Below are positions 1,963 to 27,962 of a stretch of 27,962 bases of DNA, in pieces. A program made the position numbers and the translations under genes. The stretch covers positions 1 through 27,962 of IMG/VR virus record IMGVR_UViG_3300038393_000379. The stretch is one strand, 5' to 3'. The number at the start of each line of letters is the position of its first letter. Positions within the stretch are counted from its first letter, which is position 1. The notes below the pieces were generated by a model. The model was not told where the DNA came from and did no database searches. It worked only from the letters and a program-made list of their open reading frames with translations. This stretch comes from a virus. Its lineage: Duplodnaviria; Caudoviricetes.

Positions 1963-1965
1963 CAT

Positions 1966-2026: not shown

Positions 2027-2060
2027 ACGGGGGACACCCGGAAAACAAAGGGGGTTTTCC

Positions 2061-10511: not shown

Positions 10512-10613
10512 ATGGCTACCGTCAACACGCTGGTCGCGCAGGGCAAGGTGGGCACGTTGCGCGTGCGTCCGCTGACCCGTGCCATCCGCGCCGCGCTGGG
10601 AATCCGTCAATGA
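10512..10613 (+). CDS. 33-aa peptide coupled to the portal gene (below track cutoff)
   Basis: MATVNTLVAQGKVGTLRVRPLTRAIRAALGIRQ fills the gap exactly, and its TGA overlaps the portal ATG. Confidence 0.5.
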   Translation: MATVNTLVAQGKVGTLRVRPLTRAIRAALGIRQ

Positions 10614-12316
10614 CTCTCGAGCTGCGCAAGCACTGCCAGGCGCGCAAGACGGCCCTGCTTGCCGAGCGCGACCTCTACGTCGCCGACTGGAAGGCAGTGG
10701 CGGAATACGTCGACCCGTACGCCGGCCGGTTCTTGATGAATCAGCAGGGCGGCACGCGCAAGCTGCCGAGCCGCAGCAAGATCATCAATTCCGAGGCCAC
10801 ACGCTCGGTGCGGACGATGGACGCCGGTTTCATGGGCGGCCACACCTCGAAGTCGCGGCCGTGGTTCCTGCTCGGCGTCGGCGACCCGGTGCTCAAGGAG
10901 CGGCCGAACGTCAAAGCCTGGTGCGACGACATCACCCAGGCGATCCGCGACGTGCTCGCGCGGTCCAACTTCTACACGGCGCTGCCCGACTTCTACCATT
11001 CGCGCCACCTGTTCGGCGTGGGCGGGATGCTGTGCGACATCGACCCGAAGGACACGGTGCGGTTTTACAGCCGCGCGATCGGCACCTATGCCATCGGCCT
11101 TGACGCCCGCGGCATCGCCGACAGCTTCTGGTACTGCTTCGAGCGCACCGCGCGGCAGATCGAGCAGCAATATGCGGCGACGCTCGGCGGTAACGAGAAG
11201 CTGCCGCAGAAGGTGCAGGAGGCGCTGAGGAACAACCGCGGCGACCAGAAGTTCACCATCGAGTCGCTCATCGAGCCAAACCCGGACGCGAAGCCCGGCC
11301 GGCAGGCCTCGCCGTTCCGCCCGTTCCGGCAGGTCTACTGGATCGACGGCGACGCAAGCGATGTCTGCGGCTGCCTCAAGGTCGCCGGCCATTACGACAA
11401 TCCGGCGCTGGTCTCGCGCTGGGGCGCCACCGGCAACGACTGCTATGGCCCGAGCCCGGCGATCGACACGCTGGGCGACATCAAGCAGCTGCAGTACCTC
11501 GAGGGCGAGAAGCTTCGCCTCATCGACCTGCTCTCGAAGCCGCCACTGCAGCTGCCCGACTACCTGCGCAACAAGGGCGCCAGCCTCAACCCGGGCGAAC
11601 GTATCTACGTCACGCCGATGCAGACGCAGCAGGCCGTAACGCCGATCTACACGCCGGACGCGCGCGGCCTACAGCAGGTGCAGCAGGAGATTGAGACCGT
11701 CACCGCGCGCATTCGCTCGGCGTTCTTCGTCGACCTGTTTCGCATGCTCGACAGCCTCGAGGACCGGGAGCGTACGGCCTACGAGCTCAGCGAGCGGAAG
11801 GAGGAAAAGATCGCCATGCTCGGCCCGGCGCTGGAATCGCTGACCGACGAGGTGCTCGATCCGGTCATTTCCCGCGTCTACGGAATCATGGACCAGGCCG
11901 GGCTGCTGCCGCCGCCGCCGGAGGAATTGCAGAACGGCGTGCCGTTGAACGTCGAATACACGTCCATGCTCGCCCAGGCGCAGAAGGCCGCGGGGCTGGG
12001 CACGATCGAGCGCACCATCGGCTTCGTCGGTCAGATGGTGGCGCAGTTCCAGCGTCCCGACCTGGTCGACAAGCTCGACCTCGACCAAACCATCGACGAG
12101 TACGCCGAGCGCGCGGGCTCGCCGTCGCGGATCGTGCGTTCCGACGACGACGTCGCCGCGATCCGCGAGCAGCGTGCGCAGGGCCAGAAGATGCAGCAGC
12201 TGGCCGCGATGGCGAAGCCCATGGCCGATGGCGCCGCGGCGATGAAGACGCTGGGCGAGGCGGTGCCGCAGGACGGAAGTGCGATCCAAGGCCTGGCTGA
12301 GGCGATGGGTCAATGA
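10610..12316 (+). CDS. Portal / head-tail connector (T7-like family)
   Basis: 568 aa; SRPWF, SNFY, RW...YGPSP, FFVDLF, RTAYE...EEK...LGP, VEYTSMLAQAQK motifs. Confidence 0.95.
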   Translation: MTLELRKHCQARKTALLAERDLYVADWKAVAEYVDPYAGRFLMNQQGGTRKLPSRSKIINSEATRSVRTMDAGFMGGHTSKSRPWFLLGVGDPVLKERPNVKAWCDDITQAIRDVLARSNFYTALPDFYHSRHLFGVGGMLCDIDPKDTVRFYSRAIGTYAIGLDARGIADSFWYCFERTARQIEQQYAATLGGNEKLPQKVQEALRNNRGDQKFTIESLIEPNPDAKPGRQASPFRPFRQVYWIDGDASDVCGCLKVAGHYDNPALVSRWGATGNDCYGPSPAIDTLGDIKQLQYLEGEKLRLIDLLSKPPLQLPDYLRNKGASLNPGERIYVTPMQTQQAVTPIYTPDARGLQQVQQEIETVTARIRSAFFVDLFRMLDSLEDRERTAYELSERKEEKIAMLGPALESLTDEVLDPVISRVYGIMDQAGLLPPPPEELQNGVPLNVEYTSMLAQAQKAAGLGTIERTIGFVGQMVAQFQRPDLVDKLDLDQTIDEYAERAGSPSRIVRSDDDVAAIREQRAQGQKMQQLAAMAKPMADGAAAMKTLGEAVPQDGSAIQGLAEAMGQ

Positions 12317-12645
12317 TCGACGAGCAGCGCAATGAGGCGCGCCTGGCTGAGGAGCGTCGCAAGGTCAAGCTCCAGGTCGCGCAGTTCCGCAGTGACGTGC
12401 AGGCCGTGTTCGGCACGGTCGAAGGCCGGCGCGTGCTGTCCGCGTTCCTGCACAACGCCGGCGCCGATCAATCGACGCTGCGCCACGACAACCTGGCCAC
12501 GGGCCACGCGATCGGCTGGCAGGACGCCGCGCGCTGGTGGCTGACGGCCTTGCGCGCGCACTGCCCGGAACGGGAGGTGCAAATGCGCGCCGAAGCAAAA
12601 CGAGAAGCGGCGCAAGGCGCGCCGCAGGATCCCGACGATGAGTGA
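12313..12645 (+). CDS. Bbp19-like phage protein
   Basis: DVQAVFGTVEGRRVL motif; position between portal and scaffold. Confidence 0.75.
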   Translation: MIDEQRNEARLAEERRKVKLQVAQFRSDVQAVFGTVEGRRVLSAFLHNAGADQSTLRHDNLATGHAIGWQDAARWWLTALRAHCPEREVQMRAEAKREAAQGAPQDPDDE

Positions 12646-13276
12646 CACCACCACCGAACCCGCTGCGTCGACGACGACCACCACCACGGACGCCGTCGAC
12701 ACCAGCGCTAGCACCGCGACCACTGCGACCACGGACTCCACGGCGACCACCGCGTCGGCCGAGGGGGAAGGGAAGGGCGGCACGGAGACGACGACCGACA
12801 CCACGACCACCGAAGGCGCCCCCGAGGCGTATGCGGCGTTCAACGTGCCGGATGGCTACACCCTCGAAGGCGAGCGGCTGGAAAAGCTCCACGCGTTCGC
12901 GAAGGCGAACAAGTGGACGCAGGCCCAGGCGCAGGCGGCCGTCGACCACTACATCGAACTCGACCAGCAAGGCCACGTCGCCACTCGCGAGCAGCGCGTG
13001 GAACTGTGGACCGAGCAGTCGAAAACGGAGTACGGCGACAAGTTCGACGCCATCGCCGCAGACGCGCGTGCGGGCGTGACCTGGGCGCAGCAGCACCGGC
13101 CCAACATGCTCAAGACGTTCGACGACGAGGGGTGGGGCAGCAACCCCGATGCGCTGTGGGTCTTCGCCAAGCTCGGCGAGCTCACCCGCGGCGACAAGAT
13201 GGACGGCCTTGGCAACGCCACATCAAACGGTGCCGGCGGACGTTCGATCGAGGACCGCCTCTGGCCTAAGAAGTAG
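12638..13276 (+). CDS. Capsid scaffolding/assembly protein
   Basis: Low-complexity N-terminus, APEAY.F..PDG, TQAQAQ, G.GSNP....F..LG; directly upstream of the capsid gene. Confidence 0.8.
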   Translation: MSDTTTEPAASTTTTTTDAVDTSASTATTATTDSTATTASAEGEGKGGTETTTDTTTTEGAPEAYAAFNVPDGYTLEGERLEKLHAFAKANKWTQAQAQAAVDHYIELDQQGHVATREQRVELWTEQSKTEYGDKFDAIAADARAGVTWAQQHRPNMLKTFDDEGWGSNPDALWVFAKLGELTRGDKMDGLGNATSNGAGGRSIEDRLWPKK

Positions 13277-13297
13277 CACCCCAACCCTGACCACCCC

Positions 13298-13323
13298 GGC
13301 CGCCAGCAGGCGGCTTTTTTATT
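13298..13323 (+). terminator. Terminator-like hairpin just before the capsid RBS
   Basis: GGCCGCC-AGCA-GGCGGCT followed by TTTTTATT. Confidence 0.7.
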
Positions 13324-13335
13324 GGGAGTTCCACC

Positions 13336-14382
13336 ATGGCAACCATGCCTGTGAAGTCCGGCGCCGTGACGCTGCTGGACATCGCCAAGTCGCTCGATCC
13401 GGACGGTTCCGTCTCGGCGGTCGCTGAACTGCTCTCGCAGCAGAACGACATCCTCGACCGCATCCACTGGAAGGAAGGCAACCTCGAAACGGGCCAGCAG
13501 GGCTCGATTCGCACCGGCCTGCCGGCCGCGACCTGGCGCAAGCTGTACGGCGGCGTCGCGCCGAGCAAGTCGGCCCGCGCAACCGTGACCGACACCTGCG
13601 GCATCCTCGAGGCGCGTTCCGAGATCGACAAGGACGTGGCCGACATCAACGGCAACTCTGCCGCGTTCCGCCTGTCGGAGGGCAGTTCCTTCGTCGAGGC
13701 GATGAACCAGACCTTCGGCGACTCGCTCATCTACGGTGACGTGTCGCAGAACCCTGAGCGCTTCAATGGCCTGGCGGTGCGTTACAACACCATCAACACC
13801 AGCACGTCGGAAGTCGCCAAGAACGTCATCAACGGCGGCGGCTCGGGCAACTGCACGTCGATCTGGCTGGTCGTGTCGGGCCCGGAGACGGTGTTCGGCA
13901 TCTACCCGAAAGCCTCCAAGGCGGGTCTGACCCACCAGGACCTCGGCGAGTTCGACGCGTTCGACGCCAACAACAACCGCTATCGCGCCGTCGGCGACCT
14001 GTGGAAGTGGAAGTGCGGCCTGCACGTCAAGGACTGGCGCTATGTCGTCCGCATCGCGAACGTCTCGATGACGGACCTCATCGGCCAGTCGGGCACCCAG
14101 GCCAACACCGCGGCCACCTGGCTGCCGAAGCTCATGGTGAAGGCGCTGGCGCGCATTCCGTCCATGAACATGGGCGCGGCGGCGTTCTACTGCAGCCGCA
14201 CGGTCAAGGAAATGCTGGCCGTCGGCGCGCTCGACAAGTCGCAGAACGCGCTGTCGATCCAGGAAGCCGTCAAGCAGTACGGCGACGTCAGCACCGCCTT
14301 CACGACCCAGGAACTGCGCTTCCTCGGCGTGCCGGTGTGCACCGTCGACCGCATCCTCGAAACCGAATCCGTGCTGACGTAA
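13336..14382 (+). CDS. Major capsid protein (BPP-1 Bbp17 / epsilon15 gp7 type)
   Basis: 348 aa; ELLSQQNDIL, RTGLP..TWRKLYGGV..SKS, YGD...PERFNGL..RY, TSIWLV, DWRYVVRIAN. Confidence 0.95.
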   Translation: MATMPVKSGAVTLLDIAKSLDPDGSVSAVAELLSQQNDILDRIHWKEGNLETGQQGSIRTGLPAATWRKLYGGVAPSKSARATVTDTCGILEARSEIDKDVADINGNSAAFRLSEGSSFVEAMNQTFGDSLIYGDVSQNPERFNGLAVRYNTINTSTSEVAKNVINGGGSGNCTSIWLVVSGPETVFGIYPKASKAGLTHQDLGEFDAFDANNNRYRAVGDLWKWKCGLHVKDWRYVVRIANVSMTDLIGQSGTQANTAATWLPKLMVKALARIPSMNMGAAAFYCSRTVKEMLAVGALDKSQNALSIQEAVKQYGDVSTAFTTQELRFLGVPVCTVDRILETESVLT

Positions 14383-14394
14383 GGACTCACGACC

Positions 14395-14874
14395 ATGGCA
14401 TTTCTCGATAGCAACCTCGAGTTCTCGGACGCCCAGGCCGTCACCGCCGCGGCGATCTCGACCAACGTGTTCGACACCGCCGCCCTGCGCGCCGGTGGCG
14501 GCACGGACGTGGCGGCCAACATCCGCCAGGACCTCGGCAACGGCGAGGACGACCTCTGGCTGTGCGTCACGGTCAACACCGCCTTCTCGGGCGGCGCGGC
14601 CACCGGCATGACGGTGACGTTCGAGACGGCGGACGACGCCGGCCTCACCACGAACGCCACCGTGCTGCTGACCTCGGGCGCGATCCTCTCCGCCGGTCTC
14701 ACCGCGGGCACCACGCTGATCCAGGCGCGGATCCCGTCGGCGCTGTACCGCCGCTACATCGGCGTGCGCTACACGCCGGCTGGCGGCAGCTACGGCGCGG
14801 GCGCGGTCGACGCCTACCTCACCATGGCCCCGCAGGCGAACCGGATCTACAAGTCCGGCTTCACTGTCCAGTAA
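14395..14874 (+). CDS. Capsid cement protein (Bbp16-like)
   Basis: LD..LEFSDAQAVTA.AISTNV.D...RRYIGVRY...GAVDAYL; follows the capsid gene. Confidence 0.85.
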   Translation: MAFLDSNLEFSDAQAVTAAAISTNVFDTAALRAGGGTDVAANIRQDLGNGEDDLWLCVTVNTAFSGGAATGMTVTFETADDAGLTTNATVLLTSGAILSAGLTAGTTLIQARIPSALYRRYIGVRYTPAGGSYGAGAVDAYLTMAPQANRIYKSGFTVQ

Positions 14875-14885
14875 GGACCTGACCG

Positions 14886-15131
14886 ATGAGCAAGGAAACG
14901 AAGGAACCCGCGGCTGAGGCCGCGGCAGACGTCGAGGTGATCGCGACCGAACGCGGCCACTGCGGCACCCGCGTGCGCGAGGAAGGTGAGGTGTTCACCG
15001 TCCCCGCCAAGCGCCTCGAAGACGGCTCGACGTGGTTCGTCCCGTTGGCGAAGGCGCCCGCGGCGAAGGAAGCCACGGCGAAGGATCCGAAGGCCCGCCC
15101 GCCGGGCGCCGGTCCGCTGCCGTCCGCCTGA
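14886..15131 (+). CDS. Small virion-associated protein
   Basis: VIATERG...R.EGEVF.V...W pattern; AAGGA RBS. Confidence 0.7.
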   Translation: MSKETKEPAAEAAADVEVIATERGHCGTRVREEGEVFTVPAKRLEDGSTWFVPLAKAPAAKEATAKDPKARPPGAGPLPSA

Positions 15132-15153
15132 CCGTCCGCAGTACCAACGCAGC

Positions 15154-15186
15154 AAAGACGGGGCCGGCAACGGCCCCGTCTCTTTT
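15154..15186 (+). terminator. Intrinsic terminator after the head genes
   Basis: AGACGGGGCCG-GCAA-CGGCCCCGTCT followed by CTTTT. Confidence 0.8.
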
Positions 15187-15196
15187 GGAGTGACCA

Positions 15197-15850
15197 ATGG
15201 CCGCCTCGCAGGTCGATCTCTGTAATGCCGCGCTGACCAAGCTCGCGCAGGACATCCCCATTGCGGCGATGTCAGAATCGAGCAAGGCCGCGCGCGTGTT
15301 CACGCGCTGCTACGACCGCGTGCTCGACCTGGTGCTCTCTCGGCATGCGTGGCCGTTCGCGCTCAAGGCGCAGGCGCTCGCAGCGAGCCCTGATGCCGCG
15401 TTCCCCGGCTGGGCCTACCGCTACGAGGTGCCGAGCGATTGCCTCAACGCGCTGGCCGTGTGTGACGCCAACGGCGTGCGCGCGAGCCTCAAGGCCGTTG
15501 CAGGGTGCGACACGCCATTGCCACTGACCGACGGCCGCGTCGACTTCGACACGGTGTGGGGCTCGCAGGCCTCGAACATCGTCACCGACCTGGCCGGCGC
15601 GTACCTCATCTATACCGTGCGGGTGACCGAAACCGGCCGCTTCCCGCCGCTGTTCGGCGAAGCGCTGGCTTGCCGCCTCGCGATGGAAGCCGGCCCCGCG
15701 CTGGCCGGCGAGCTCGGCGTGCGCCTGGCGCAGAAGCTGCAGCAGGACTACGAAGTCGCGCGCGCCGAGGCCATCGCGCAGGCGCTCAACGAAGGCCGGG
15801 ACACGCTGCAGGCGGCGACGCCGAGCGTGCAGGCGCGCGGGGGCTACTGA
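15197..15850 (+). CDS. Head-tail adaptor (tail tubular protein A-like)
   Basis: SQVDLCNAAL..L, HAWPFA, Y.Y..PSDCL, FPPLF.EALA.RLA. Confidence 0.85.
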   Translation: MAASQVDLCNAALTKLAQDIPIAAMSESSKAARVFTRCYDRVLDLVLSRHAWPFALKAQALAASPDAAFPGWAYRYEVPSDCLNALAVCDANGVRASLKAVAGCDTPLPLTDGRVDFDTVWGSQASNIVTDLAGAYLIYTVRVTETGRFPPLFGEALACRLAMEAGPALAGELGVRLAQKLQQDYEVARAEAIAQALNEGRDTLQAATPSVQARGGY

Positions 15851-17032
15851 GTGAAGTTCCTGCAGCCCAGTCTGTCCGGCGGCGAGATGGCGCCGGGCCT
15901 GCGCGGCCGCGTCGACGTCGCCCGCTATGCGATCTCGCTGGCGCAGTGCCGCAACTTCATCACCCGCCCGACCGGCGGCGCGATCAAGCGCCCTGGCCTG
16001 CGCTTCAACGGCGAAGTTAAGGACAGCGCCAACCCGCCGCGCATCCTGCCGTTCGTCTACTCGACCGAGATCAAGTATCTGCTCGAGTTCGGCGTCGGCT
16101 ACGTCCGCTTCTGGGTGCCTGCCACGCCGTACGGCTACAGCCTGCTCAAGAGTGGCGGTGTGCCCGTCGAGGTGGTCACCCCGTACACGGCCGCCGACCT
16201 GCCGAATCTGCGCATCACCCAGTCGGCCGACGTGCTCTACATCGCGGGCGTGAACGGCGCAACGAAGATCCCGCCGAAGGAACTGCGCCGCACCTCGCCC
16301 ACCAGCTTCACCCTCACCGACTTTGCGTTCCGCCGCGGTCCGTTCCGCGCGATGAACGGCGACGAGTCGGTGAAGATGGCTGTCACGTCGGTGACCGGCA
16401 AGACGACGATCACCTGCAACGCGCCGGTGTTCACCGCGAACATGGTCGGCGGGCTCCTCTACTTCGAGGAGAAGGAGCTGCGCGCGGTCAAGCCGTGGAC
16501 GCCGCTCGAGAAGAACATCGGCGTCGGGACGCTGCGCCGCTCAGACGGCAAGGTCTACCGCTGCGCCAGCGTGCCGAGTGTCACCAGCCCCGCCTACTAC
16601 ATTTGCGGCAACGACCGCCCGATTCACGAGGTCGGCCGGGCCTTCGATGGCCCGCAGGACGTGCGCAACGACGGCGTCAACAACTACACCGTCGGCGTCG
16701 AATGGGAATACCTGCACGGCAGCTTCGGCATCGCCAAGATCACCGGCTACACGTCCGCCTATGCCGTCACCGGCGTGGTGGTCGAGCGCATCGCCAATTC
16801 GATCATCGGCACCGCGCCCGCGCCGGGCGGATCGTGGACGTTCAACGGCGATGGCAGCACCGTGACGTTCAGCCTGACCAGCCCGAACAACACCAGCCCG
16901 TCGGTCTACGACTACGCCGTCACCATCGGCGGCACGCCGGTGCGGTCAAACCCGTATTCGGAGCCCACCTCGGGCGTCGGCGGTCGCGGCGGTGGCACGA
17001 ATACCGGCCCGCTGGGGAGTGACGTGCCATGA
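15851..17032 (+). CDS. Tail nozzle (tubular protein B-like), N-terminal part
   Basis: QPSLSGGEMAP.L.GRVD..RY, NF...GG...RPG, R.LPF.YS, LEFG..YVRF, TQSADVL. Confidence 0.85.
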   Translation: MKFLQPSLSGGEMAPGLRGRVDVARYAISLAQCRNFITRPTGGAIKRPGLRFNGEVKDSANPPRILPFVYSTEIKYLLEFGVGYVRFWVPATPYGYSLLKSGGVPVEVVTPYTAADLPNLRITQSADVLYIAGVNGATKIPPKELRRTSPTSFTLTDFAFRRGPFRAMNGDESVKMAVTSVTGKTTITCNAPVFTANMVGGLLYFEEKELRAVKPWTPLEKNIGVGTLRRSDGKVYRCASVPSVTSPAYYICGNDRPIHEVGRAFDGPQDVRNDGVNNYTVGVEWEYLHGSFGIAKITGYTSAYAVTGVVVERIANSIIGTAPAPGGSWTFNGDGSTVTFSLTSPNNTSPSVYDYAVTIGGTPVRSNPYSEPTSGVGGRGGGTNTGPLGSDVP

Positions 17033-18720
17033 GTCAGGGCTGGTCGATCGACAACGTCGCGCACACGATCACGTTCCTGGAAGCGCCGGCCGTGGGCACC
17101 GGCAACGTGGTGGTCAAGGAATACGCCGCCAGCGCGTTCGGCGGCACGGACTGCTGGGCCATCGGGGCCTGGAATGCGGAGTACGGCTGGCCGACCGAGG
17201 TGGAATTCTTCTCCGATCGCCTGTTCTGGGCGGGTAGCGCCAAGGATCTGCAGACGATCTGGGGCTCGAACGTCGGCGACTACACGAACTTTGGCAAGTC
17301 GACGCCGATCATCGACTCGGACGCACTCACCTTCGCGATCAACACGCGACAGGTGAACGCGGTGATGGACCTGGTCCCGCTCGACAAGCTCATCGTGCTG
17401 GCCAAGGGCGGCGAGTTCCTAATGACCGGCGGGCAAGACGAGGTCGTCACCCCGTCGACCATCGGCATCAAGCCGCAGTCCTATCGCGGCACCGGTGGGC
17501 TGCAGGCGAAGGTCGTCGGCGACACGGCGATTTTCGTGCAGGAACAGGGCCAGCGGGTTTTCGACATCGGCTACAAATTCGAGCAGGACGGCTATCGCCC
17601 GCAGGACATTTCGGTGTGGGCCGAGCACCTGGTCGAAGGGCACATGCTGGTGCGCATGGAGTGGATGCCGGCGCCGTGGTCGCTGCTGCATTTCGTGCGC
17701 GACGACGGCGTGCTGCTCGGCTGCACGTACATGCCCGAGCAGGAGGTGATCGGCTGGCACCAGCACGACACGGCGGGCGAGATCCTCGACGTCGTCTGCC
17801 TGCCGGGCGACAAGCAAACCGAAACGCACCTGCTGGTGCGCCGCACCATCAACGGCGTGTCGAAGGTCTACCTCGAGCAGTACGCCGACAGCTTCGTCGA
17901 GGACATCCGGGACTGGTGCTACGTCGATGCGGCGCTGACCTACGACGGACGCAACACCGGCGCGACCACCATCACCCTGAGTGGCACGGGCTGGACCGAG
18001 GACGACACCCTGACCCTGACCGCCTCGGCGCCGCTGTTCGTGGGCAGCAGCGATGTCGGCGACGGGTTCGAGCTTGCCCGCACCGTGACGGAGACCGATC
18101 CCACGACGGGCGTCGACACCGACGTGACCCACAAGGTGCGCGTCATCATCACCGGCTACGTCTCGGCGACGGTCGTGCAGGTCTCGTCGATCGGCGCGGT
18201 GCCGGCGGCGCTGCAAGGCGTGGCACTCACCGACTGGGTGCTGCAGCGCTCGACCATGTCGGGGCTCGACCACCTGGAAGGCGAGGAGGTCTCGATCCTG
18301 GCCGACGGCTCGGTGCATCCGACGCGCGTGGTGACCGGCGGCGCGATCACCCTGCAGTCGCCAGGCGGCGTCGTGCAAATCGGCCTGCCGTACCGCGCGT
18401 TGCTGGAAACGCTCGAGGTCAACGCGGCCGGCGGCGAGCCCATGCGCGGCAACAAGAAGTTGATCCAGTCCGTCGGACTGCTGGTCAAGGACGCGCGCGG
18501 CCTCAAGGCTGGTACGCGCCTGGACATGCTCGACGACCTGCCGCAGCGCGAGTTCGAGGCCTACGGCGATCCGACACTGCCGCTGACCGGCTACGCGCGC
18601 ATTCCGGTGTCGGCCGAGTGGGGCGAGAACAACGGCCACATTTTCCTGGTCTCCGACGACCCGCTGCCGGCCGAGATCCTGTCGCTGCTCCCGCGCCTGA
18701 TGAGTTCCGACGCCGGATGA
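17029..18720 (+). CDS. Tail nozzle (tubular protein B-like), C-terminal part
   Basis: GWP..V.FFSDRL, WGS..GDY.NF, QEVIGWHQH, GLDHLEGEEV.ILADG, IGLPY, DPLP..IL; ATGA overlap with GGGGAG RBS. Confidence 0.85.
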   Translation: MSQGWSIDNVAHTITFLEAPAVGTGNVVVKEYAASAFGGTDCWAIGAWNAEYGWPTEVEFFSDRLFWAGSAKDLQTIWGSNVGDYTNFGKSTPIIDSDALTFAINTRQVNAVMDLVPLDKLIVLAKGGEFLMTGGQDEVVTPSTIGIKPQSYRGTGGLQAKVVGDTAIFVQEQGQRVFDIGYKFEQDGYRPQDISVWAEHLVEGHMLVRMEWMPAPWSLLHFVRDDGVLLGCTYMPEQEVIGWHQHDTAGEILDVVCLPGDKQTETHLLVRRTINGVSKVYLEQYADSFVEDIRDWCYVDAALTYDGRNTGATTITLSGTGWTEDDTLTLTASAPLFVGSSDVGDGFELARTVTETDPTTGVDTDVTHKVRVIITGYVSATVVQVSSIGAVPAALQGVALTDWVLQRSTMSGLDHLEGEEVSILADGSVHPTRVVTGGAITLQSPGGVVQIGLPYRALLETLEVNAAGGEPMRGNKKLIQSVGLLVKDARGLKAGTRLDMLDDLPQREFEAYGDPTLPLTGYARIPVSAEWGENNGHIFLVSDDPLPAEILSLLPRLMSSDAG

Positions 18721-19187: not shown

Positions 19188-19726
19188 CCCTCGCGCTCTC
19201 CCTGTCCTGGTCCGCGCGCCCGTTCGCGCAGGCCGATGGCTTCGTGCCGCTACCGATCGGCCGGCCGTCCGCGCCGCCGCTGGCGCCGTCGCTGGCGCAG
19301 ATCAAGCAGCTGCAGGACCGGCTCGTCGCCACGGGCGCCGGCGTCGACCTGTCGGAGAGGTTGCGCCACCACTTCGCGCCGGGGATGTACGGCCGCGAGC
19401 TTGCGATCCCGGGCGGCATGGTCGTGGTCGGCAAGGTGCATCGGCACCAGCATTTCACCCTGCTGCTGTCGGGCGAGGCGACGATCAACACCGACCGCGG
19501 CATGGAGCGCATCACTGGCCCGCACGTCTGGGTGTCGCAGCCGGGGGCGAAGCGCGCACTGATGACGCACACCGATTGCGTGTTTTTCACCGTCCACCTG
19601 AACCCCGACGACACGAATGACCTCGCATTGATCGAGGAACGCACGATCGTGCCCGAGGACGCCATCGCCTACGAACCGGCGCAGCTGGCCGAGTTCGCCG
19701 ACGACCTGCAGGAGGTATACGCATGA
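19184..19726 (+). CDS. Cupin-like phage protein
   Basis: HHFAPGMYGREL.IP.G...VGKVHRHQH....SG...PG.KR...H. Confidence 0.8.
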   Translation: MTLALSLSWSARPFAQADGFVPLPIGRPSAPPLAPSLAQIKQLQDRLVATGAGVDLSERLRHHFAPGMYGRELAIPGGMVVVGKVHRHQHFTLLLSGEATINTDRGMERITGPHVWVSQPGAKRALMTHTDCVFFTVHLNPDDTNDLALIEERTIVPEDAIAYEPAQLAEFADDLQEVYA

Positions 19727-20226
19727 CGTGGGTCTATGTGGGCGTCGCTGTCGTCACGCTGGTCGTGGGTGCGGCCGAAGCCAAGCAGCAGCGCGAAGCG
19801 GGCCGCGCGAACCAGCAGATCGCCGAGAACAACGCCCGCCTCGACGAGGTGCAGGCGCAGGACGAAGCGAACAAGGGCGCGCGCGAGTCGCAGCAATCGG
19901 CCTGGCGCACCCGCGCCTTGATCGGCCAGCAGCGCGCGGACATCGCCGCGGCAAATCTCGATTCGGACCTCGGCACGCCGTTTGACATCCAGACCGATGC
20001 CGCGCTGTTCGGCGGCGCCGACAAGTCGGCCATCCAGATGGATGCGGCGCGCAAGGCGTGGGGATTCCAGTCCTCGGCGCTCAACAACCGCAACCAGGGC
20101 GCGCTCGCCAACTGGCAGGGCCAGTCGTCGTCGAAGATCACGATTCTGCGCTCGTTCGGCAGTGCCATGAGCAGCGCGGCCGGCGCCAAGGGCAGCAGTT
20201 CCACCACCAACACGCAGTGGTACTGA
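19723..20226 (+). CDS. Small internal virion (ejection) protein, T7 gp14-like
   Basis: Hydrophobic N-terminus, Ala/Gln-rich helix, G.QRA..AA..D...GTP motif; first of three core genes. Confidence 0.8.
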   Translation: MTWVYVGVAVVTLVVGAAEAKQQREAGRANQQIAENNARLDEVQAQDEANKGARESQQSAWRTRALIGQQRADIAAANLDSDLGTPFDIQTDAALFGGADKSAIQMDAARKAWGFQSSALNNRNQGALANWQGQSSSKITILRSFGSAMSSAAGAKGSSSTTNTQWY

Positions 20227-20230: not shown

Positions 20231-22507
20231 ATGGCGATCATTCCCCGCGCCAATCCTGCCGACGTCACGCAGATTTCATCCCTGCCCGGCGTGCGCAACA
20301 CGTCCGAGGTGCGCCCGGTGTCGGGCATGGCGGACGCGATCACCGGCGTCGCCGGACAGGCGCTGCGGATCCATGAGGACGCGGTCGCCCGCAATGACGC
20401 GACGGCGGTCATGGCTGCGCGCCGGCAGCTGTCGGACTGGGAAGCGCACACCTTCGACCCGTCCAACCCGGACGGCATCACGAAGTACCAGGGCGGCAAC
20501 GCGCTGGGCGCCAGCGACGCGCTCATGCCGGACCTGGACAAGACCGTCGCCGGCATCAGCGACAGGCTGACGCCGCGGCAGCGCCGCGCATTCGATGCGG
20601 TCGCGTTCAACTTCCGCGACTCGGTGCAGGGCCGGCTCACCGCACACATGACGCGCGAGCACGAGACGTTCTTGCAGCAGCAGGATGAGGCGACCCAGAC
20701 CAGCCTGCTCAACGACGCGGTGAGCGTCAGCCTCGGCGGCGACTACGCGACCGGCCGGCAACGACTCGACGAGGGCGTCTCGGCGATCGCGCTGTCGATG
20801 GGGCACCGCGGCGCGCCGGCGCAGGCGATTGCGCAGGCGCAGCAGAAATACGTCTCCGGCTACCACGCGGCGATGCTCGACTCGATGCTTTCGAGCGACC
20901 CGTCGCAGGCGCAGGCCTATTTCGGCGACCACGAGAAGGAAATGACGGTCGACGACAGGCTGCGCGTCGAGCGCGTGCTGCGCCCGGTGGCGACGGAGGC
21001 GAACGCGCGCAACCTGGTCGACAGCTGGGTCAAGGGCGGCGCCACGCCGGCCGCCGGCCAGCCCGTCGAGGGCGCGGCGCGCACCCCGGCCGAGGTCGAA
21101 GCGGTGGCGCGCGCGTCGGTCGAGCGCACGGTCGGGCTGGAATCCGGCGGCAAGGCCGACGCCAAGAACCCGGCCTCGAGCGCGACCGGCAGCGCGCAGT
21201 TCGTCGACGGCACCTGGCTGGACGTGATGACCCGCTATCGGCCCGACCTGACCGCGGGCAAGTCGCGCGCGCAGGTGCTGGCGCTGCGCAACGATCCGGC
21301 GCTGTCGAAGGAAATGGCGACCGCCTACGCGATCGAGAACTGCAAGGGCCTGTATGAATCCGGCCTGCCGGTGACGCCCGAAACGGCCTACCTGTGCCAC
21401 CACTTCGGCCTGGCCGGAGCGCGCAACCTGCTGCGCGCGGACCCGAATACACCGGTGCGCGACGTGCTCGACCCGCAAGCGTATGCCGCGAACGGCTACC
21501 TGCAGGGCAAGACGGTGGCCGACCTGCTGCACATCCATGCCGGCCGCGCCGGCGATGCGCCGGGGCCGGTCGCGCCCGGTCCGAGGGCCCTGACGCCCGA
21601 GGGAAAACCCGACTTCGCCGCGCTCGCCGCGCGCGCCCAGGCGCTGCCGAACCCGCTGCTGCGTGATGCCGCGCTGCGCGAGATCAGCCAGCGCGAGACG
21701 TTGCAGAATCGCGCCGAGCAGGACTATCGCGAGTCGATGGTCACCGCGCTCAACCAGGCGGTCGAGACGGTTCCGCCGGGCACGCCGTACGAGAAGGCGT
21801 TCACGCCCGACCAGCTGGCTTACGCGCGCGATCACGGCCTCGTCGACAACCTTCAGGCCCGGCTCAAGGCGCGCGCCGCCGGCACGCTGGTGCAGTCCGA
21901 CCCGGTGCTGCTCGATGCCTACCTGCGCGAGTCGGTGACCGACCCGCGGACGTTCGCCACGCGCAAGGCCGAGATCCTCGCGCACGCCGACAAGCTGGCC
22001 ACCGCCGACCTCCACGAGCTCGTCGCGCGCATCGACACGCTCAACGACCCGAAGAAGCAGGGCGAGGCCGCCGATTGGTCGACCGAAGCGCAGCGGCTCA
22101 ACGGCGGCCTGCGCATGCTCGGCATCGACCCCGCCTCGAAGGCGGCGGCCGACAAGGAAAAGGCCGCCGGCTTCGGCATGGCCTACCGGCAGGCGAAGCG
22201 CGCGCTCATCGAGACCTTGGGCGGCAAGAAGCCGACGCCGGAGCAGGAGGAGACCCTCATGCGCAACGTGACGCGCAACTGGGCCGCCGACATCGCCGCC
22301 GGGCGCAAGCCGTGGATCGGTGCCAAGGCGCAGGAGAACCTCGCCGCCGGTGCGCCGATGACCGACAACGCCGGCAACCCGGTGCAGCTGACCGCGCAGG
22401 ACCGCGTCACCGTCGCGGCGGTGCTGCGCCGGCGCTTGGGGCGGGAGCCGACCGAGGCGCAGATCCTCGCTGCGGCAGGTAGCTATCTGGCCGGAGGTGG
22501 CCGTTGA
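20231..22507 (+). CDS. Internal virion protein with a lytic transglycosylase domain (758 aa)
   Basis: Helical protein with central LESGG...AKNPASSATGSAQFVDGTW...YLCHHFG (lysozyme/SLT-like motifs). Confidence 0.85.
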   Translation: MAIIPRANPADVTQISSLPGVRNTSEVRPVSGMADAITGVAGQALRIHEDAVARNDATAVMAARRQLSDWEAHTFDPSNPDGITKYQGGNALGASDALMPDLDKTVAGISDRLTPRQRRAFDAVAFNFRDSVQGRLTAHMTREHETFLQQQDEATQTSLLNDAVSVSLGGDYATGRQRLDEGVSAIALSMGHRGAPAQAIAQAQQKYVSGYHAAMLDSMLSSDPSQAQAYFGDHEKEMTVDDRLRVERVLRPVATEANARNLVDSWVKGGATPAAGQPVEGAARTPAEVEAVARASVERTVGLESGGKADAKNPASSATGSAQFVDGTWLDVMTRYRPDLTAGKSRAQVLALRNDPALSKEMATAYAIENCKGLYESGLPVTPETAYLCHHFGLAGARNLLRADPNTPVRDVLDPQAYAANGYLQGKTVADLLHIHAGRAGDAPGPVAPGPRALTPEGKPDFAALAARAQALPNPLLRDAALREISQRETLQNRAEQDYRESMVTALNQAVETVPPGTPYEKAFTPDQLAYARDHGLVDNLQARLKARAAGTLVQSDPVLLDAYLRESVTDPRTFATRKAEILAHADKLATADLHELVARIDTLNDPKKQGEAADWSTEAQRLNGGLRMLGIDPASKAAADKEKAAGFGMAYRQAKRALIETLGGKKPTPEQEETLMRNVTRNWAADIAAGRKPWIGAKAQENLAAGAPMTDNAGNPVQLTAQDRVTVAAVLRRRLGREPTEAQILAAAGSYLAGGGR

Positions 22508-25500
22508 TCGACCCGAGCAAGCTGTCCGCGTTCCTCGACGAGCAGGACACCGAGCGCGCGCGTGCGGCGGCCGTCGCCGCGCCCCCGGTCGCCCCGGCGC
22601 AGATGGGCCGCGCGCTGACGCTGTCGCAGCAGACCGGCGCGCCGGCACTCGCTGTCGCCGATGCGCTGCCCGACTTCGAGGCGCAGGCGCACCGCGATGC
22701 GGTGGCGCAGGCCGCCACCGACAGCCCGGCGTTCGCGCGCTGGCATCAGGCGCCGGAGCACGCGGCGCTCGCGCAGGGCGAGGCGAGCAAGCTCGGTCTG
22801 CTGGCGAGCACGCTCGAAGCCTTCAACAGCCTGCGCGGCGGCTACGTGCGCCCGATCGCCGACGCCATCGGGCGCGGCTTGGCGCGTGCCCGCCTCGGCA
22901 CCGCATTCCAGCAGTCCGATGCGTCGATGCTGGCGTCGACGGCGCAGGTGGCCAGCGATTACCTCGACCAGCCGCGGCAGGCGCTGGCAGGGGTGCTGCA
23001 CCCGCTCGGCATCGACTACGGCGACCCGCTCTATACGCAGCGCGCCGCGGACGCGACCGCCTTCGCTGCGCACGAGGCGAGCGCGGACCTGCAGCAGACG
23101 ATGCAGGCCGTCGGCGCACGCCCGACCGCGCGCGACGTGTTGCACAACCCGTTCACCGCGCTCGAGCAGGGCGTTGCCTACTACGGCACCCGGCAGGCCG
23201 CGTCGGCGCCGGCGCTGGCGTTCCTGCTCGGTACGCGCGACCCGCACGCGGCCGCGCTGTTGATGGGCGTTCCGACGGGTGCGCAGACCTATTCGGACCT
23301 GCGCGGGCAGGGCGTCAGCATGCCCGTCGCGACCGTGGCGGGGCTCGGCACCGGCGCAGCGGAAGTGCTGGGCGAGGAGGTCGGTCTCGAGGGTCTGCTC
23401 AAGCGCCCCCTGACCAACGCCGTGACCCGCGGCATCGCGGTGGAAGCGGGGCAGGAAGGCGTCACCCAGGCGATGCAGGATGAGATCGAGGCGCAGGCCT
23501 CGGGCAAGCCGCTGACGCTGGGCGAGCGGATCGGCAACGTGTTTGACGCGATGGCGCTGGGCGGCGGCACCGGCGCCACCATCACCGGCGCGCGTGCGCT
23601 GCTCACGCGCGAAGCGGCGCCCACGGTCGATGGCCTGGCCAATCTGGCCGGCGCTGCGGAGGGCAGCCGGCGCATCGCAGACGTCGTGCAGCAGGTGGCC
23701 GACCTCGGTCTCGGCAAGCACAGCCCTGAGGCGCTGCGCGCGCTCGCGCAGGAGGCGGCCAGCGATGCGCCGGTGTACCTCGCCGCCGACCAGGCGCGCG
23801 CGTTGTTCCAGTCCGAACGGGCGAGCGCGGATGCTTTCGTCGGCGACCTGACCGGCGATCACAACGCGCTACGCGAGGCCGAGGCCAGCGGCGGCGACCT
23901 GGTCATCCCGCTTTCGACCTTCGTCGCCAAGGTGGCCACGCTGCCGAACGCCGCGGAGATCGCCAAGCACACCCGTCTGTCCGCCGACCACCTCTCGCGC
24001 GCCGAACTCGAGAACGAGGCCGCGCTGAACGAGCGCCTCGCCAGCCTGTTCGGCGATACCGCCGACGCCGCCGGGCGCGCGCAGCCGGAAACTGCCCAGG
24101 CCGACACCAGCGACAAGGTGACGCAGGACGTGCTCGGCATGCTGCTCGCGACCGACCGCTACAAGCCGGCCGACGCCGAGCTGCAGGCGAAGCTGGTCGG
24201 TCGGGTGTTCGGCCGCATGGCCGAGCGGACCGGGCAGGATGCGTTCGACCTGTATTCGCGCTACCAGCTGCGCATCAACGGGCAGGGCGGCCGGCAGGGC
24301 CGACCGAACACGCTCGACCCGCGCACCGATGCCGTGCTCACTGCGGCGCGCACCGGCGCCATCCCCGAGGGGCGTGACCTGTTCGGCACCTCGCTAGTGC
24401 AGGCGCTGGTCGCGCAGGGTGGCGTGCAGGACGAAGGCGGCGACCTGCGCAGCTTCGACGCGCTCAAGTCGCGCCCCGGCCTCATCAACAAAAACGGCAT
24501 GCCGCTGGATGCGGCGCGCGAATGGGCGGTTGAGGCCGGCTATCTGCGCGACCACGGCGCCGAGCAGGGCGGCGTCACCACCTCCGACATCAACGACCTG
24601 CTCGACGCGATCGACAGCGAGCTCCGCGGCAATCCGGTGTTCTCCGAGCAAAACGCGGACCCGAAGGCGCAGGCGTTCGCGAACGAAGCGCGCGACCTGC
24701 AACGGGCGATCGACGAACACCCGGCGCTGCGCGACATGTCGGCGAGCGAGTTTCAGGCGCTGTCGAACCAGGAGCTGCACGACCTGCTGTTCGCGCCCGA
24801 GGACACGGCCGAGCCGTCGCTGCTGCAGAAGGCGTTCGGCAAGGTCAAGGCACTGTTCCAACCGGCGTTTCATGGCTCGCCTCACCACTTCGACCGCTTC
24901 TCGCTGCAGCACATTGGCACGGGCGAAGGTGCTCAGGTCTACGGCTGGGGCATGTATTTCGCCAGCCGGCGCGATGTCGCTGAGTATTACCGCGAAGGCT
25001 TGTCGGCGCAGTACCGCACCGGCGAAGAAATGCAGTGGAACGGCAAGACGGCCGAGCAACACTATGAGGCTGCGGAACGTCGCTCGGACTACGGGAAAAT
25101 GCTGGTTTTGGAGCGCATCATGCTCCACCAGCCTAAGCGGGTGATCGAACAGTATTTTGCGGAGGATGCTGACGAAAATCAGCAGTCGCGCGATGCGCTC
25201 GCCTACTTGAAGTCGCTCCCGAAGGAGGCATTCGCGTCGACGGGCGGACAGCTGTACCAGGTCGATGTGCCCGAGGATTCGGATCTCCTCGATTGGGACA
25301 AGCCGCTCGCCGAGCAGCCGGAGAAGGTGAAAGACGCGCTTGATCGCGCCGGCATCTACCCGAACTGGCGAAAGCAGGAGGCTCTGCAACGTCGCATCGA
25401 CGCAGCCGATACGGAGGAGGGCACGGAGGAATGGCGTCGCCTCTCGGATGAAATGGCGAAGCTGCGCGGCGAGCATGGTCGCGGCCCTGCTGCGACCGGA

Positions 25501-27962
25501 AGCTCGGCGTATCACAGCCTCGGAATGGCTGTCGCATCGCGCGACGGCAGTCCGTTTGCCGAGGGTCGCGCCGACTTCAACCCAGCGAAAATGGCTTCGG
25601 AGGCGCTACTCGCCGTTGGCATTCCCGGCCTGCGCTACCTCGATGGCGGCAGCCGCGGCATGGGCGGCGAAGGTTCACACAACTACGTGATATGGGACGA
25701 GAGCGCCATCGGCGAGCCGCGCACGTTCTATCAGTCCGCCGTTCCGCCCGAGGATGAAATCGCACGGCTGCGCGCGAAGATCGCCGCGCTCGAAAAGGAG
25801 CTGCGCACCGACGCGCTCACCGGCATGCGCAACCAGCGCGCGTTCGACGAGGATGCAGCGCTCGGCTGGCCGAGCGTGGCCGCCGCCGACATGGACGGCC
25901 TCAAGCGCCTGAACGATGCCATCGGCCACGAGGCCGCCGACGCCGTGCTGCGCAGCCTGGGCGGCGTCCTGCTCGCCAGCGAGACCGAGGGCGTGCGCTT
26001 CTACCGCCGCAGCGGCGACGAGTTCGCCGCGCGCTTCCAGAACCCGGACGATGCCGAGCGCATCATGGCCGCGCTGCAGCAGCGCCTCGAGGACGTTGCA
26101 ATCGACCTCGACGTGGCCGATGCTGCCGGCAAAGTCCGTCACCTCACCTATGAAGGGATTGGCCTGAGCTATGGCACCGGACCCGACTACGAACGCGCCG
26201 ACGCCGCCGCCAGCGTCAACAAGCGAGACCGCCTCGCCGCCGGCATCCGCGAAGAAGCCCGTACCGATGGGCAGCCTCGCCGACTTCAGCCCCGCGGACC
26301 TGCGGGGCGGGACAGTGGTGGGGGTGAAGGTGCGGGATCGCCGGACACCACCGGCCAAGTAAACGACGAGACCCCGCCCACCGGCGGGGTTTCTGCTTCT
26401 GGCGACCTGCACCAGCCCGACGGCGCGGGCGCGCCGCGTGGCCGCCTGCGCATCGGCGCCGACCGCAGCATGGCGATCGACCTGTTCCGCGGCGCGGACC
26501 TATCGACGTTCCTGCACGAGTCGGGCCATTTCTTCCTCGAGGTAATGCAGGACGCCGCGGCGGGTTCGCCCGAAGTCGCGGCCGATCTCGACCGCGTGCG
26601 CGCCTGGGTGGGCAACACCGGCGAGGCCTTCACCGAGGAGCAGCACGAGCAATTCGCGCGCGGCTTCGAGGCCTATCTGCGCGAGGGCAAGGCGCCGGCG
26701 CCGGAACTGCGCGGCATGTTCGGCCGCTTCCGCGCGTGGCTGTGGTCGGTCTATCGCGACCTGCGCCAGCTGAACGTCTCGCTCACCGACGAGGTGCGCG
26801 GCGTGTTCGATCGCATGCTCGCGACCGACGCCGAGATCGAGGCCGCACAGGCGAAGCAGGGCGTGCAGCCGATCGCGCTGGCCGACGAGGCGAAGGCGCT
26901 GCTGTCACCGGGCCAGTGGGAGGCCTACGTCGCGGCGACCGCCGAGGCGACCGAGGAGGCCCGCGCCGAGGTGCTGCAGAAGCTGCTGGCGGCGCACGCG
27001 CGCGAGGCGAAAGCCTGGTATCGCGAGCAGAAGGCCGCGGTGCGCGACGAGGTCGAGGCGGAATTCGAGGCAGTGCCGGCGGTGCGCGCCTGGCGCATCC
27101 TGGCGGGGCGGCAGACGGTCGATAAGGCAACGCCCCCGCCGGCGAAGGGCATGGTGCGGGTGTATCACGGCGGCGTCGACGGCCAGAGCGCGGATCATTC
27201 GCGCTGGTTCACGGCGAGCCTGCCGCGCGCCCAGGCATACGCCGACAAGGGCGTCGAAGGGAGCCGCGTCTACTACGTCGACCTGCCCGCCGATCACCCG
27301 CTCGTCGCACCGGAGTACGAAGGGCAGGGCATCCTCGACGGCGCCGATTGGGTGGGCGAACTGCCGTTCGAGATCGCGCGCCAGCGTCGCCCCTTCGTCG
27401 AGGCCGACTCGCCGATCGCCGGCCTGCGTCTCGACCGACAGGCGCTGGTCGACGCCTACGGCGAGCAGTGGGTTAAGGAGAAGCTGCTCAAGCTCGGCGT
27501 GTACCGCAAAGAGGGCGGCGTGCATCCGGACACCGCGGCTGCGGCGCTCGGCTTCCCGTCCGGAGACGCGCTGGTGAAGGCATTGGCCGAGGTCCGCGAC
27601 CTGCAGGCGCGCATCGCGCAGGAGGTCGACGACCGCATGCACGCGCGCCATCCGGATCCCGCGCTCGACGGCTCGCTGCCCGATCTCGCCATGCGCGCGG
27701 TCCACAACAACGCGCGGGTGAAGGTGCTCGAGGCCGAGCAGGCGATCCTGGCCACGTTGGCGAACCAGCCGGCGCCCCCGGCGCGCTTGGTGCGCGAGTA
27801 CGCCCGGCGCAAGGTCGCCGCGCTCACGGTGCGCGAGGTGCGCCCGAACGACTACCTGGCGGCCGAGCGGCGCGCCGCGGCCGCGGTGGCCAAGGCGGCC
27901 GCGCAGGGCGACTATGCCGAGGCCCTGCAGCACAAGCGCGCCCAGGCGCTGCAGGCGGCGCT
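22504..27962 (+). CDS. Giant internal virion / polyvalent protein (partial, >1800 aa): ART-like, GGDEF, HExxH peptidase-like and second ART-like domains
   Basis: Not in the ORF track (no stop in window). GGAGGT RBS at 22493-22498 and TTG 22504 overlapping the upstream TGA. Manual translation (MIDPSKLSAFLDEQ...) has no stop to the edge. Motifs: FHGSPHHFDRF 24868, DALTG 25810, SGDEF 26011, HESGH 26515, VRVYHGG 27154. Confidence 0.9.
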   Translation, partial: MIDPSKLSAFLDEQDTERARAAAVAAPPVAPAQMGRALTLSQQTGAPALAVADALPDFEAQAHRDAVAQAATDSPAFARWHQAPEHAALAQGEASKLGLLASTLEAFNSLRGGYVRPIADAIGRGLARARLGTAFQQSDASMLASTAQVASDYLDQPRQALAGVLHPLGIDYGDPLYTQRAADATAFAAHEASADLQQTMQAVGARPTARDVLHNPFTALEQGVAYYGTRQAASAPALAFLLGTRDPHAAALLMGVPTGAQTYSDLRGQGVSMPVATVAGLGTGAAEVLGEEVGLEGLLKRPLTNAVTRGIAVEAGQEGVTQAMQDEIEAQASGKPLTLGERIGNVFDAMALGGGTGATITGARALLTREAAPTVDGLANLAGAAEGSRRIADVVQQVADLGLGKHSPEALRALAQEAASDAPVYLAADQARALFQSERASADAFVGDLTGDHNALREAEASGGDLVIPLSTFVAKVATLPNAAEIAKHTRLSADHLSRAELENEAALNERLASLFGDTADAAGRAQPETAQADTSDKVTQDVLGMLLATDRYKPADAELQAKLVGRVFGRMAERTGQDAFDLYSRYQLRINGQGGRQGRPNTLDPRTDAVLTAARTGAIPEGRDLFGTSLVQALVAQGGVQDEGGDLRSFDALKSRPGLINKNGMPLDAAREWAVEAGYLRDHGAEQGGVTTSDINDLLDAIDSELRGNPVFSEQNADPKAQAFANEARDLQRAIDEHPALRDMSASEFQALSNQELHDLLFAPEDTAEPSLLQKAFGKVKALFQPAFHGSPHHFDRFSLQHIGTGEGAQVYGWGMYFASRRDVAEYYREGLSAQYRTGEEMQWNGKTAEQHYEAAERRSDYGKMLVLERIMLHQPKRVIEQYFAEDADENQQSRDALAYLKSLPKEAFASTGGQLYQVDVPEDSDLLDWDKPLAEQPEKVKDALDRAGIYPNWRKQEALQRRIDAADTEEGTEEWRRLSDEMAKLRGEHGRGPAATGSSAYHSLGMAVASRDGSPFAEGRADFNPAKMASEALLAVGIPGLRYLDGGSRGMGGEGSHNYVIWDESAIGEPRTFYQSAVPPEDEIARLRAKIAALEKELRTDALTGMRNQRAFDEDAALGWPSVAAADMDGLKRLNDAIGHEAADAVLRSLGGVLLASETEGVRFYRRSGDEFAARFQNPDDAERIMAALQQRLEDVAIDLDVADAAGKVRHLTYEGIGLSYGTGPDYERADAAASVNKRDRLAAGIREEARTDGQPRRLQPRGPAGRDSGGGEGAGSPDTTGQVNDETPPTGGVSASGDLHQPDGAGAPRGRLRIGADRSMAIDLFRGADLSTFLHESGHFFLEVMQDAAAGSPEVAADLDRVRAWVGNTGEAFTEEQHEQFARGFEAYLREGKAPAPELRGMFGRFRAWLWSVYRDLRQLNVSLTDEVRGVFDRMLATDAEIEAAQAKQGVQPIALADEAKALLSPGQWEAYVAATAEATEEARAEVLQKLLAAHAREAKAWYREQKAAVRDEVEAEFEAVPAVRAWRILAGRQTVDKATPPPAKGMVRVYHGGVDGQSADHSRWFTASLPRAQAYADKGVEGSRVYYVDLPADHPLVAPEYEGQGILDGADWVGELPFEIARQRRPFVEADSPIAGLRLDRQALVDAYGEQWVKEKLLKLGVYRKEGGVHPDTAAAALGFPSGDALVKALAEVRDLQARIAQEVDDRMHARHPDPALDGSLPDLAMRAVHNNARVKVLEAEQAILATLANQPAPPARLVREYARRKVAALTVREVRPNDYLAAERRAAAAVAKAAAQGDYAEALQHKRAQALQAA
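26171..26362 (+). CDS. Nested out-of-frame small ORF (63 aa; alternative start 26267 gives 31 aa)
   Basis: +1 frame inside the giant gene, ending in TAA 5 nt before a terminator. Its 3' half has GC-ending codons while the main frame there is a low-complexity linker. Confidence 0.5.
   Translation: MAPDPTTNAPTPPPASTSETASPPASAKKPVPMGSLADFSPADLRGGTVVGVKVRDRRTPPAK
26368..26400 (+). terminator. Intragenic intrinsic terminator
   Basis: GAGACCCCGCC-CACC-GGCGGGGTTTC plus TGCTTCT; nearly the same stem as the terminator at 6157. Confidence 0.7.

Follow-up and report, generated by a model that had tools for sequence, protein, structure and literature searches.

A zipper-led GGDEF module in a giant ejection-type protein of a short-tailed phage, a candidate virion-borne cyclic di-GMP cyclase

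We analyzed positions 1 to 27,962 of the viral record IMGVR_UViG_3300038393_000379 of IMG/VR (Duplodnaviria; Caudoviricetes), a stretch of 27,962 nucleotides that we call the window. Its forward strand carries at 22504..27962 the first 1819 codons of a giant open reading frame (ORF) that runs past the window end. It could be completed at 2654 amino acids (aa) with the IMG/VR contig L001, which is identical to the window over 12,213 of 12,213 overlapping bases. This is a gene for a giant polyvalent internal virion protein of the IVP-D type, similar to Bbp10 and epsilon15 gp17 (phrog_9880, E 7e-158, and tblastn). Window positions 25750 to 26250 encode residues 1083-1249 of the ORF (counted from the start at 22504) and contain, in frame, a short coiled coil followed by a GGDEF domain. 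The initial annotation had proposed that the phage may inject this domain as an unregulated diguanylate cyclase; the translation of the motifs that it quoted was matched exactly upon retranslation.

The GGDEF domain covers D1103-R1249 (25810..26250, forward strand, like the other genes and domains below unless stated) and was delimited by Pfam, PDB matches, an AlphaFold model, and the family alignment. D1103 opens the DxLT motif, D1129-D1146 reads DMDGLKRLND..GH...D, the SGDEF signature lies at S1170-F1174 (26011-26025), and D1233 and K1240 follow. The Pfam check that had been suggested for the domain was positive, since GGDEF (PF00990) scores 51.2 bits for a cut-off of 23.8 (E 1.6e-13). Of the PDB sequence matches, 27 carry a molecule name, and each of these is a GGDEF or response-regulator cyclase; the best match is the GCN4-WspR fusion 3I5C. 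The AlphaFold model of the module has a pLDDT of 94.6 and a pTM of 0.88. The fold does not count as evidence separate from the sequence match, because most of the 107 rows of the input alignment were host cyclases (90, with 17 rows of the phage lineage). The PDB matches listed by Foldseek are all GGDEF proteins, 91 of them at E <=0.001 with a best TM of 0.72, led by DgcB, SiaD, PleD, and DgcR (E ~1e-9). The class III cyclase fold, with the DxLT turn and the beta2-beta3 motif hairpin, is present in the model; a final short strand after the last helix is absent from it. The GGDEF domain is real but divergent. An assembly or frame artefact is excluded by the identical contig L001 and by 63 other giant proteins with the same domain, and a host gene joined to a phage contig by the in-frame position of the domain with phage genes on both sides. 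As for mCpol or another cyclase family, there was no Pfam match at E 0.01 and all listed fold matches are GGDEF.

The 63 other giant proteins, of 2070-4466 aa, came from a domain search, and they answer positively the initial suggestion to survey homologous proteins for the fusion. The 64 domains (the window and these 63) have a mean identity of 53% and a minimum of 24%. Host cyclases generally end with K-x-x-G-R-N. The phage family has an end of its own, K-x-x-R-x-x-x-G-x-R, in which R1243 is found in 64/64 and R1249 in 63/64. We placed the residues of DgcR (PMC8041772) by motif offsets onto the 64 sequences. In DgcR numbering, D174, N182, E217 (as Asp), E218, and K289 are invariant, and H187 is kept in 63, D282 in 62, D191 in 57, D183 in 56, and K179 in 51 sequences. 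The metal ligands and phosphate lysines of the window protein are present (D1129, D1172, E1173, K1134, K1240), as are the guanine-reading N1137 (64/64) and D1146 (57/64) and also H1142, in agreement with the earlier claim that the metal- and guanine-binding residues are retained. Only 12 of the 148 core columns are invariant and they include 5 of the 12 functional positions (Fisher p 0.0008, for sequences that are not independent). Three pairs of related phages give dN/dS ratios of 0.08-0.24.

The coiled coil that precedes the domain (E1083-T1102; 25750..25809) is a helix in the AlphaFold model, with hydrophobic residues at -17, -14, -10, -7, and -3 from the DxLT aspartate. Passages of PMC8041772 describe two registers of the coil before DxLT, the activated one using position -3, and report that GCN4-WspR in the activated register is highly active. 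The rule that we drew from these passages places the contacts at -14, -10, -7, and -3 in the activated state and at -14, -11, -7, and -4 in the inactive one. The window coil has L1089, I1093, L1096, and L1100 at the activated positions and the charged K1092 and E1099 at -11 and -4; its register matches that of 3I5C in the alignment, and the same four hydrophobic positions are found in activated DgcR and PadC. In the family, large hydrophobics occupy -14 in 77%, -10 in 98%, -7 in 96%, and -3 in 80% of the domains. They occur at -11 and -4 in 0% and 1% of them, versus 25% and 44% in hosts, where position -3 is mostly Ala. This heptad pattern is compatible with the activated dimer state, and the module is predicted from it to be self-dimerizing and unable to switch off. 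Since a coil in the activated register could dimerize the module, the oligomer of the ejectosome may not be needed.

The absence of the inhibitory site (I-site), which the initial annotation had noted for the window, extends to the whole family. The position reads TEGV (T1161-V1164) in the window protein, and RxxD is found in 0/57 phage domains versus 80/128 host domains. These counts concern the domains that motif anchoring retained, 57 of 64 in phages and 128 of 170 in hosts, and the host set is a convenience control, fetched with patterns from the phage alignment in 5/64 parts of each collection. GCN4-WspR, DgcR, and PadC are host enzymes, engineered or regulated, that possess the cross-dimer Arg, whereas the phage module is natural and lacks both a sensor and RxxD. 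In deeper members of the lineage (L181-L185, L187, L205), the zipper is replaced at the start of the module by an ERR...R segment and an M(S/T)xEE helix. Arg-rich motifs resemble c-di-GMP-binding segments. These members may have a different feedback.

The assignment of the giant gene to an ejection slot, already made in the initial annotation, is supported by synteny and by homology to Bbp10, which is listed with epsilon15 gp17 as IVP-D in PMC4819975. By tblastn, scaffold segments of the giant protein match Xanthomonas CP2-like phages, Carin1 gp32, AF gp16, and BPP-1 Bbp10 at 35-40% identity (best 40 of 55 cultured-phage records); the match to Bbp10 (E 3e-30) covers 18% of the 1819-aa query at 40% identity. 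Just upstream lie the first ejection gene, coding for a 167-aa protein similar to internal virion protein B (19723..20226; phrog_418, internal virion protein, E 1.6e-26), and the second, coding for a 758-aa protein similar to internal virion protein C with a transglycosylase (20231..22507; phrog_10475 and phrog_4067), whose stop overlaps the TTG start of the giant gene at 22504. The proteins of the IVP-D group (Bbp10, epsilon15 gp17, CP2/Xacm4-11 gp35, Carin1 gp32, AF gp16) are likewise encoded by the third gene after those of the 167-aa protein and the transglycosylase. The length of the 167-aa protein equals that of Xacm4-11 gp33, which is, in the Xacm4-11 preprint, a candidate core protein together with gp34 (730 aa) and gp35 (2300 aa). 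Both homology and synteny with Bbp10 and epsilon15 gp17 are thus found here, and from these we infer that the giant protein is packaged and ejected.

The protein is also polyvalent in composition. An LPD22 domain at residues 18-100 (22555..22803; PF18834, 44.9 bits, cut-off 28.6) and the GGDEF domain score above their cut-offs. An ART-PolyVal-like domain with a long insert, at residues ~789-1065 (24868..25700; PF18760), scores 27.2 bits, below the cut-off of 31.2; its weak match is confined to residues 789-834 and the extension to 1065 was read by eye. A conserved scaffold segment (26422..26880) contains HESGH (26515-26529), the sole HExxH of the protein. This segment has no Pfam or NCBIfam match. 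We read it, from the motif and from section 8 of PMC5512222, as a putative zincin-like peptidase (MPTase) that might release the cargo; that section proposes such a release by HExxH peptidases in general. The gene lies among phage packaging and virion genes, as expected for polyvalent proteins. A second small insert (27136-27420, YHG...WFT) resembles by eye a minimal ART-type fold; it has no Pfam or NCBIfam match and is matched by 7/79 of the relatives defined below.

To place the module in the protein, we searched viral loci for the HExxH segment and took the best 80 of 403 as scaffold relatives, 79 of them other than the window's own. That segment is matched by 79/79, which were fetched using it. 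Between 72 and 79 of the 79 match over most of residues 1301-2500, and at most 10 anywhere in 701-1300, a zone in which relatives (17 proteins scanned) carry ART, zeta-kinase, GNAT, or PBECR domains. By this pattern, residues 700-1300 form a swappable cargo zone. The module itself is found on several scaffolds: 23 of the 63 carriers share the C-terminal scaffold of the window and 40 are without it, and their labels include LPD22 (20/63), InPase (7/63), N4-like virion RNA polymerase (3/63), LPD38/39, SNF2/methylase, and SLT. Among shorter proteins (8000 best candidates), the search gave 4 matches, 3 of them on contigs <3.2 kb. At the DNA level, cultured phages searched with the domain gave no match. 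The three carriers with an N4-like polymerase are P0036, P0044, and P0052, and P0044 comes from the cultured Dyella sp. ASV21, whose carrier prophage encodes WP_199097240.1. In L036 (6251-6745) and L038 (8489-9052), a second GGDEF lineage, grouping with host cyclases, was captured into the same LPD22 scaffold. In L091 (3374-3952), a 4125-aa InPase/LPD38 protein, the SGDEF hairpin precedes DMDGLK..ND..H..D with the DNA in one frame, which is either a natural permutation or a misassembly.

A FastTree phylogeny of 245 rows, without the permuted L091, duplicates, and 2 short host rows, places the 64 proteins, 9 more viral domains, and 2 standalone genes in one clade (support 0.81). These two genes, L187 (1176-1742) and L205 (9908-10435), code for 175-188 aa and fall within the phage lineage; their neighbourhoods look chromosomal, and they are possibly domesticated copies. 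In a smaller tree of 75 rows (every third protein and deep members, every fifth host; midpoint root), Pseudomonas phage NEU2024 and Bordetella phage CN2 are represented by standalone GGDEF proteins that are sister to the ejection clade (SH-aLRT 94, unstarred). These proteins are also the best cultured matches to the domain, at ~33% identity among the best 40 of 109 records, and their genes are located among non-structural genes.

We propose that this zipper-GGDEF module within an ejection-type protein is a constitutive c-di-GMP cyclase, likely packaged and injected and free of host control, and we hold this to be somewhat more probable than its negation. The giant protein would be packaged and then ejected through the envelope, and its cargo zone would enter the cytoplasm, possibly released by the HExxH peptidase next to it. 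There the module would dimerize by its own zipper in the activated register and make c-di-GMP without feedback. As the most likely purpose, the infected cell could be driven to shut off motility and pili; it would then stay where it is, closed to competing phages that use pili. Pilus shut-off and superinfection exclusion as the purpose are a reasoned guess by analogy. A peptide of PB1-like phages is reported to raise c-di-GMP and lower twitching (PMC8085984), c-di-GMP to induce PlzR, which blocks pili and YuA adsorption (PMC11461919), and a phage 92% identical to the scaffold relative CP2 to require type IV pili. Assuming ~4 injected copies (from the T7 core protein ratio of 8:8:4 quoted in the Xacm4-11 preprint) and 0.33 per second (activated DgcR, PMC8041772), our own arithmetic gives an output of 40-80 molecules/min, or ~0.1 micromolar/min in 1 fL. 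Because ~4 copies yield only this much, we find it more plausible that the effect is local, or primes the cell over minutes, than that it amounts to a global surge. A bolder version sees in the module a natural 'GCN4-WspR' cassette, without sensor and locked on by its own zipper, swapped among unrelated ejection proteins (Bbp10-, N4 polymerase-, and DarB-type), that is injected, signals before phage gene expression, and shuts pili so that superinfection is excluded at once; the lost cross-dimer Arg may allow a product other than c-di-GMP. Taken as a whole, we regard this version as rather doubtful.

Several observations weigh against the proposed injected cyclase. The score for NCBIfam TIGR00254 is 35.9 bits for a cut-off of 37.4, short by 1.5 bits. 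The cross-dimer Arg (R147 of DgcR) is Q1111 in the window protein, and an Arg is found there in 11/57 phage domains versus 124/128 host domains; the inter-subunit Tyr of ADxALY (Y286) is S1237 and is kept in 3/64. The Gly before D191 is mostly Ala in the family and the first motif Gly mostly Ser. K179 is replaced by Gly in 10/64 and D191 by Asn in 7/64, changes that may mark drift. The module is dispensable, since a GGDEF domain of any kind is present in 3/79 scaffold relatives (L033 of the window lineage, L036 and L038 of the separate one), and 0/40 of the listed cultured-phage matches to the giant protein, including the IVP-D members among them, are described with such a domain, unlike the window protein. 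The GTP cost of a locked-on cyclase made late in many copies is unexplained by the model.

The two lost contacts matter most for the product. R147 and Y286 are given as contacts between the two subunits of DgcR (PMC8041772), and the cross-dimer Arg is reported to be 94% conserved in cyclases, to favour guanine across the dimer, and to be replaced in the promiscuous Hypr enzymes (PMC6456294). The Arg and the Tyr are conserved in cyclases, may not be essential, and are both replaced in the window protein. Because the former is Gln and the latter Ser, rate or product may differ from the canonical ones. These replacements had been missed initially: GGDEF identity, catalytic residues, lack of an I-site, and gene slot all speak for the injected unregulated cyclase, but the efficiency and product of a canonical enzyme are not assured. 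An Asp at the base-reading site together with a GGDEF motif is shown to give diguanylate cyclase activity only (PMC6456294), and c-di-GMP would be the likeliest product by this residue pattern, with some doubt on rate and purity. A sub-lineage of five proteins (P0020, P0025, P0031, P0053, P0057) has both the Lys-to-Gly change at K179 and the Asp-to-Asn change at D191; its members are candidates for altered specificity or decay.

An active cyclase could also be useful late. As the product of a late gene, the unpackaged copies would raise c-di-GMP in the producing cell, with carriage in the virion as a by-product. By our own arithmetic there would be ~1200 enzymes late (a burst of ~300, from Xacm4-11, times ~4 copies) versus 4 injected, so late synthesis could be more important than injection. 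In addition, standalone members of the lineage lie in non-structural regions of YuA-like phages, and injection is thus not required for function. However, a late function needs no fusion, and the lineage is repeatedly found inside injected-type proteins on different scaffolds (23/63 with that of the window, 40/63 not), with a second GGDEF lineage captured into the same slot in L036 and L038. Late use is the chief alternative, and we consider it unlikely as the main explanation.

The domain might instead be catalytically weak or dead, binding GTP or pairing with host cyclases to poison them, or serving as a structural dimerization element. The loss of both inter-subunit contacts would fit, as would the K179 to Gly changes in 10/64 and the patchy presence of the module (3/79). 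Yet both metal ligands, the fourth-position Glu, and one phosphate Lys, which a pure scaffold does not need, are invariant in 64/64, and the family-specific R1243 and R1249 could replace the lost contacts. This makes a weak or dead domain quite improbable in our view.

Still more doubtful is an active enzyme with a mixed or other product, such as 3',3'-cGAMP or another purine dinucleotide, aimed at nucleotide-signalled defences and not at lifestyle. As in promiscuous Hypr enzymes, the window protein has lost the cross-dimer Arg; a Gln, Tyr, Ser, or Ala in its place is reported to accompany cGAMP in those enzymes, and the Asp in GDEF that they need is present in 64/64 (PMC6456294). The Asn variant at the guanine-reading site, in 7/64, could point the same way. 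On the other hand, the window protein keeps D1146, the very Asp that goes with diguanylate cyclase activity only (PMC6456294), and Pfam gave no mCpol or other cyclase family at E 0.01. Like the Hypr GGDEF enzyme GacA, the window protein has a non-Arg residue at the cross-dimer site and the Asp in the motif; GacA differs in having Ser/Thr at the guanine-reading site where the window protein has Asp. A typical Hypr enzyme is excluded by D1146, with no Ser/Thr at that site among the 64.

The novelty that the initial annotation had left to a search does not hold in general terms. GGDEF is listed among the domains of polyvalent proteins, together with LPD22, ART-like domains, the HExxH peptidase, and the virion gene block (Iyer et al. 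2017, PMC5512222), and the same two hypotheses have been in print there since 2017; the work proposes injection, and interference with host nucleotide signalling or defence against rival elements. The polyvalent GGDEF proteins of that work have the same giant multidomain architecture and virion-block location as the window protein, which is a real, well-conserved member of the kind then predicted. In the sections of PMC5512222 consulted, they receive two sentences and an Acetonema example, without analysis of active site, I-site, or register; its FTP supplement may list this architecture. The retrieved parts of PMC7824862 and PMC9239159 contain nothing on the GGDEF domain of such proteins. In a literature search made mostly without subscription journals, we found no assay of a GGDEF enzyme encoded by a phage, whether injected or not.

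Other phages have related means. The standalone GGDEF proteins of YuA-like Pseudomonas and Vojvodinavirus Bordetella phages share with the module DLDSLK/DMDGLK, SGDEF or AGDEF, and the K-x-x-R-x-x-x-G-x-R end. They differ in being non-structural proteins of 152-156 aa that keep the cross-dimer Arg and GHxxGD and are without the beta-hairpin insert and the long zipper. Lysogens of LK3 are reported to form more biofilm, and the GGDEF gene is noted in the consulted text without being linked to this by a test (PMC8471281). The YfiN-interacting peptides of PB1-like phages are described as raising host c-di-GMP and reducing motility (PMC8085984), as we propose here; unlike the window module, they are early-expressed activators of a host cyclase, neither enzymes nor virion-borne. 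The module spans 175 residues, has clear borders, and comes with a definite structural prediction, namely a locked active register without feedback, which makes the prediction of 2017 cheaply testable; a standalone protein of this lineage is encoded by cultured YuA-like phages of a laboratory Pseudomonas strain. Destruction or sequestration of host nucleotide signals by phages is known. If our proposal is true, the synthesis of a second messenger would be a virion-delivered step of infection.

The rest of the window identifies the phage as a short-tailed podovirus of the epsilon15/BPP-1 type. Pfam and PHROG profiles match the portal, scaffold, major capsid, tail adaptor, and split nozzle genes (10610..18720). 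Upstream of the giant gene are thus found terminase, portal, GP7-type capsid, adaptor, split nozzle, and two core genes, and a tail-fibre-like gene was read downstream of it on contig L001. The phage is probably temperate, as suggested by NinB, an O-like initiator, and divergent repressor-like genes: the divergent repressor/Cro-like pair, a CII-like gene, and the O-like gene lie at 1020-3663. The leftward repressor has no profile match and its label is a reading by eye. Among the carriers of the GGDEF module, two relatives are named, Dyella sp. ASV21 and a metagenome-assembled genome of Lysobacterales. A terminator-like inverted repeat followed by T's (accccgccc accggcggggt ttct; 26363-26392), seen by eye, lies in the ORF linker after the GGDEF domain. 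The tail nozzle (15851-18720) is divided between two genes that overlap, each matching one half of phrog_376; the nozzle of Xacm4-11 is split likewise, into gp30 and gp31.

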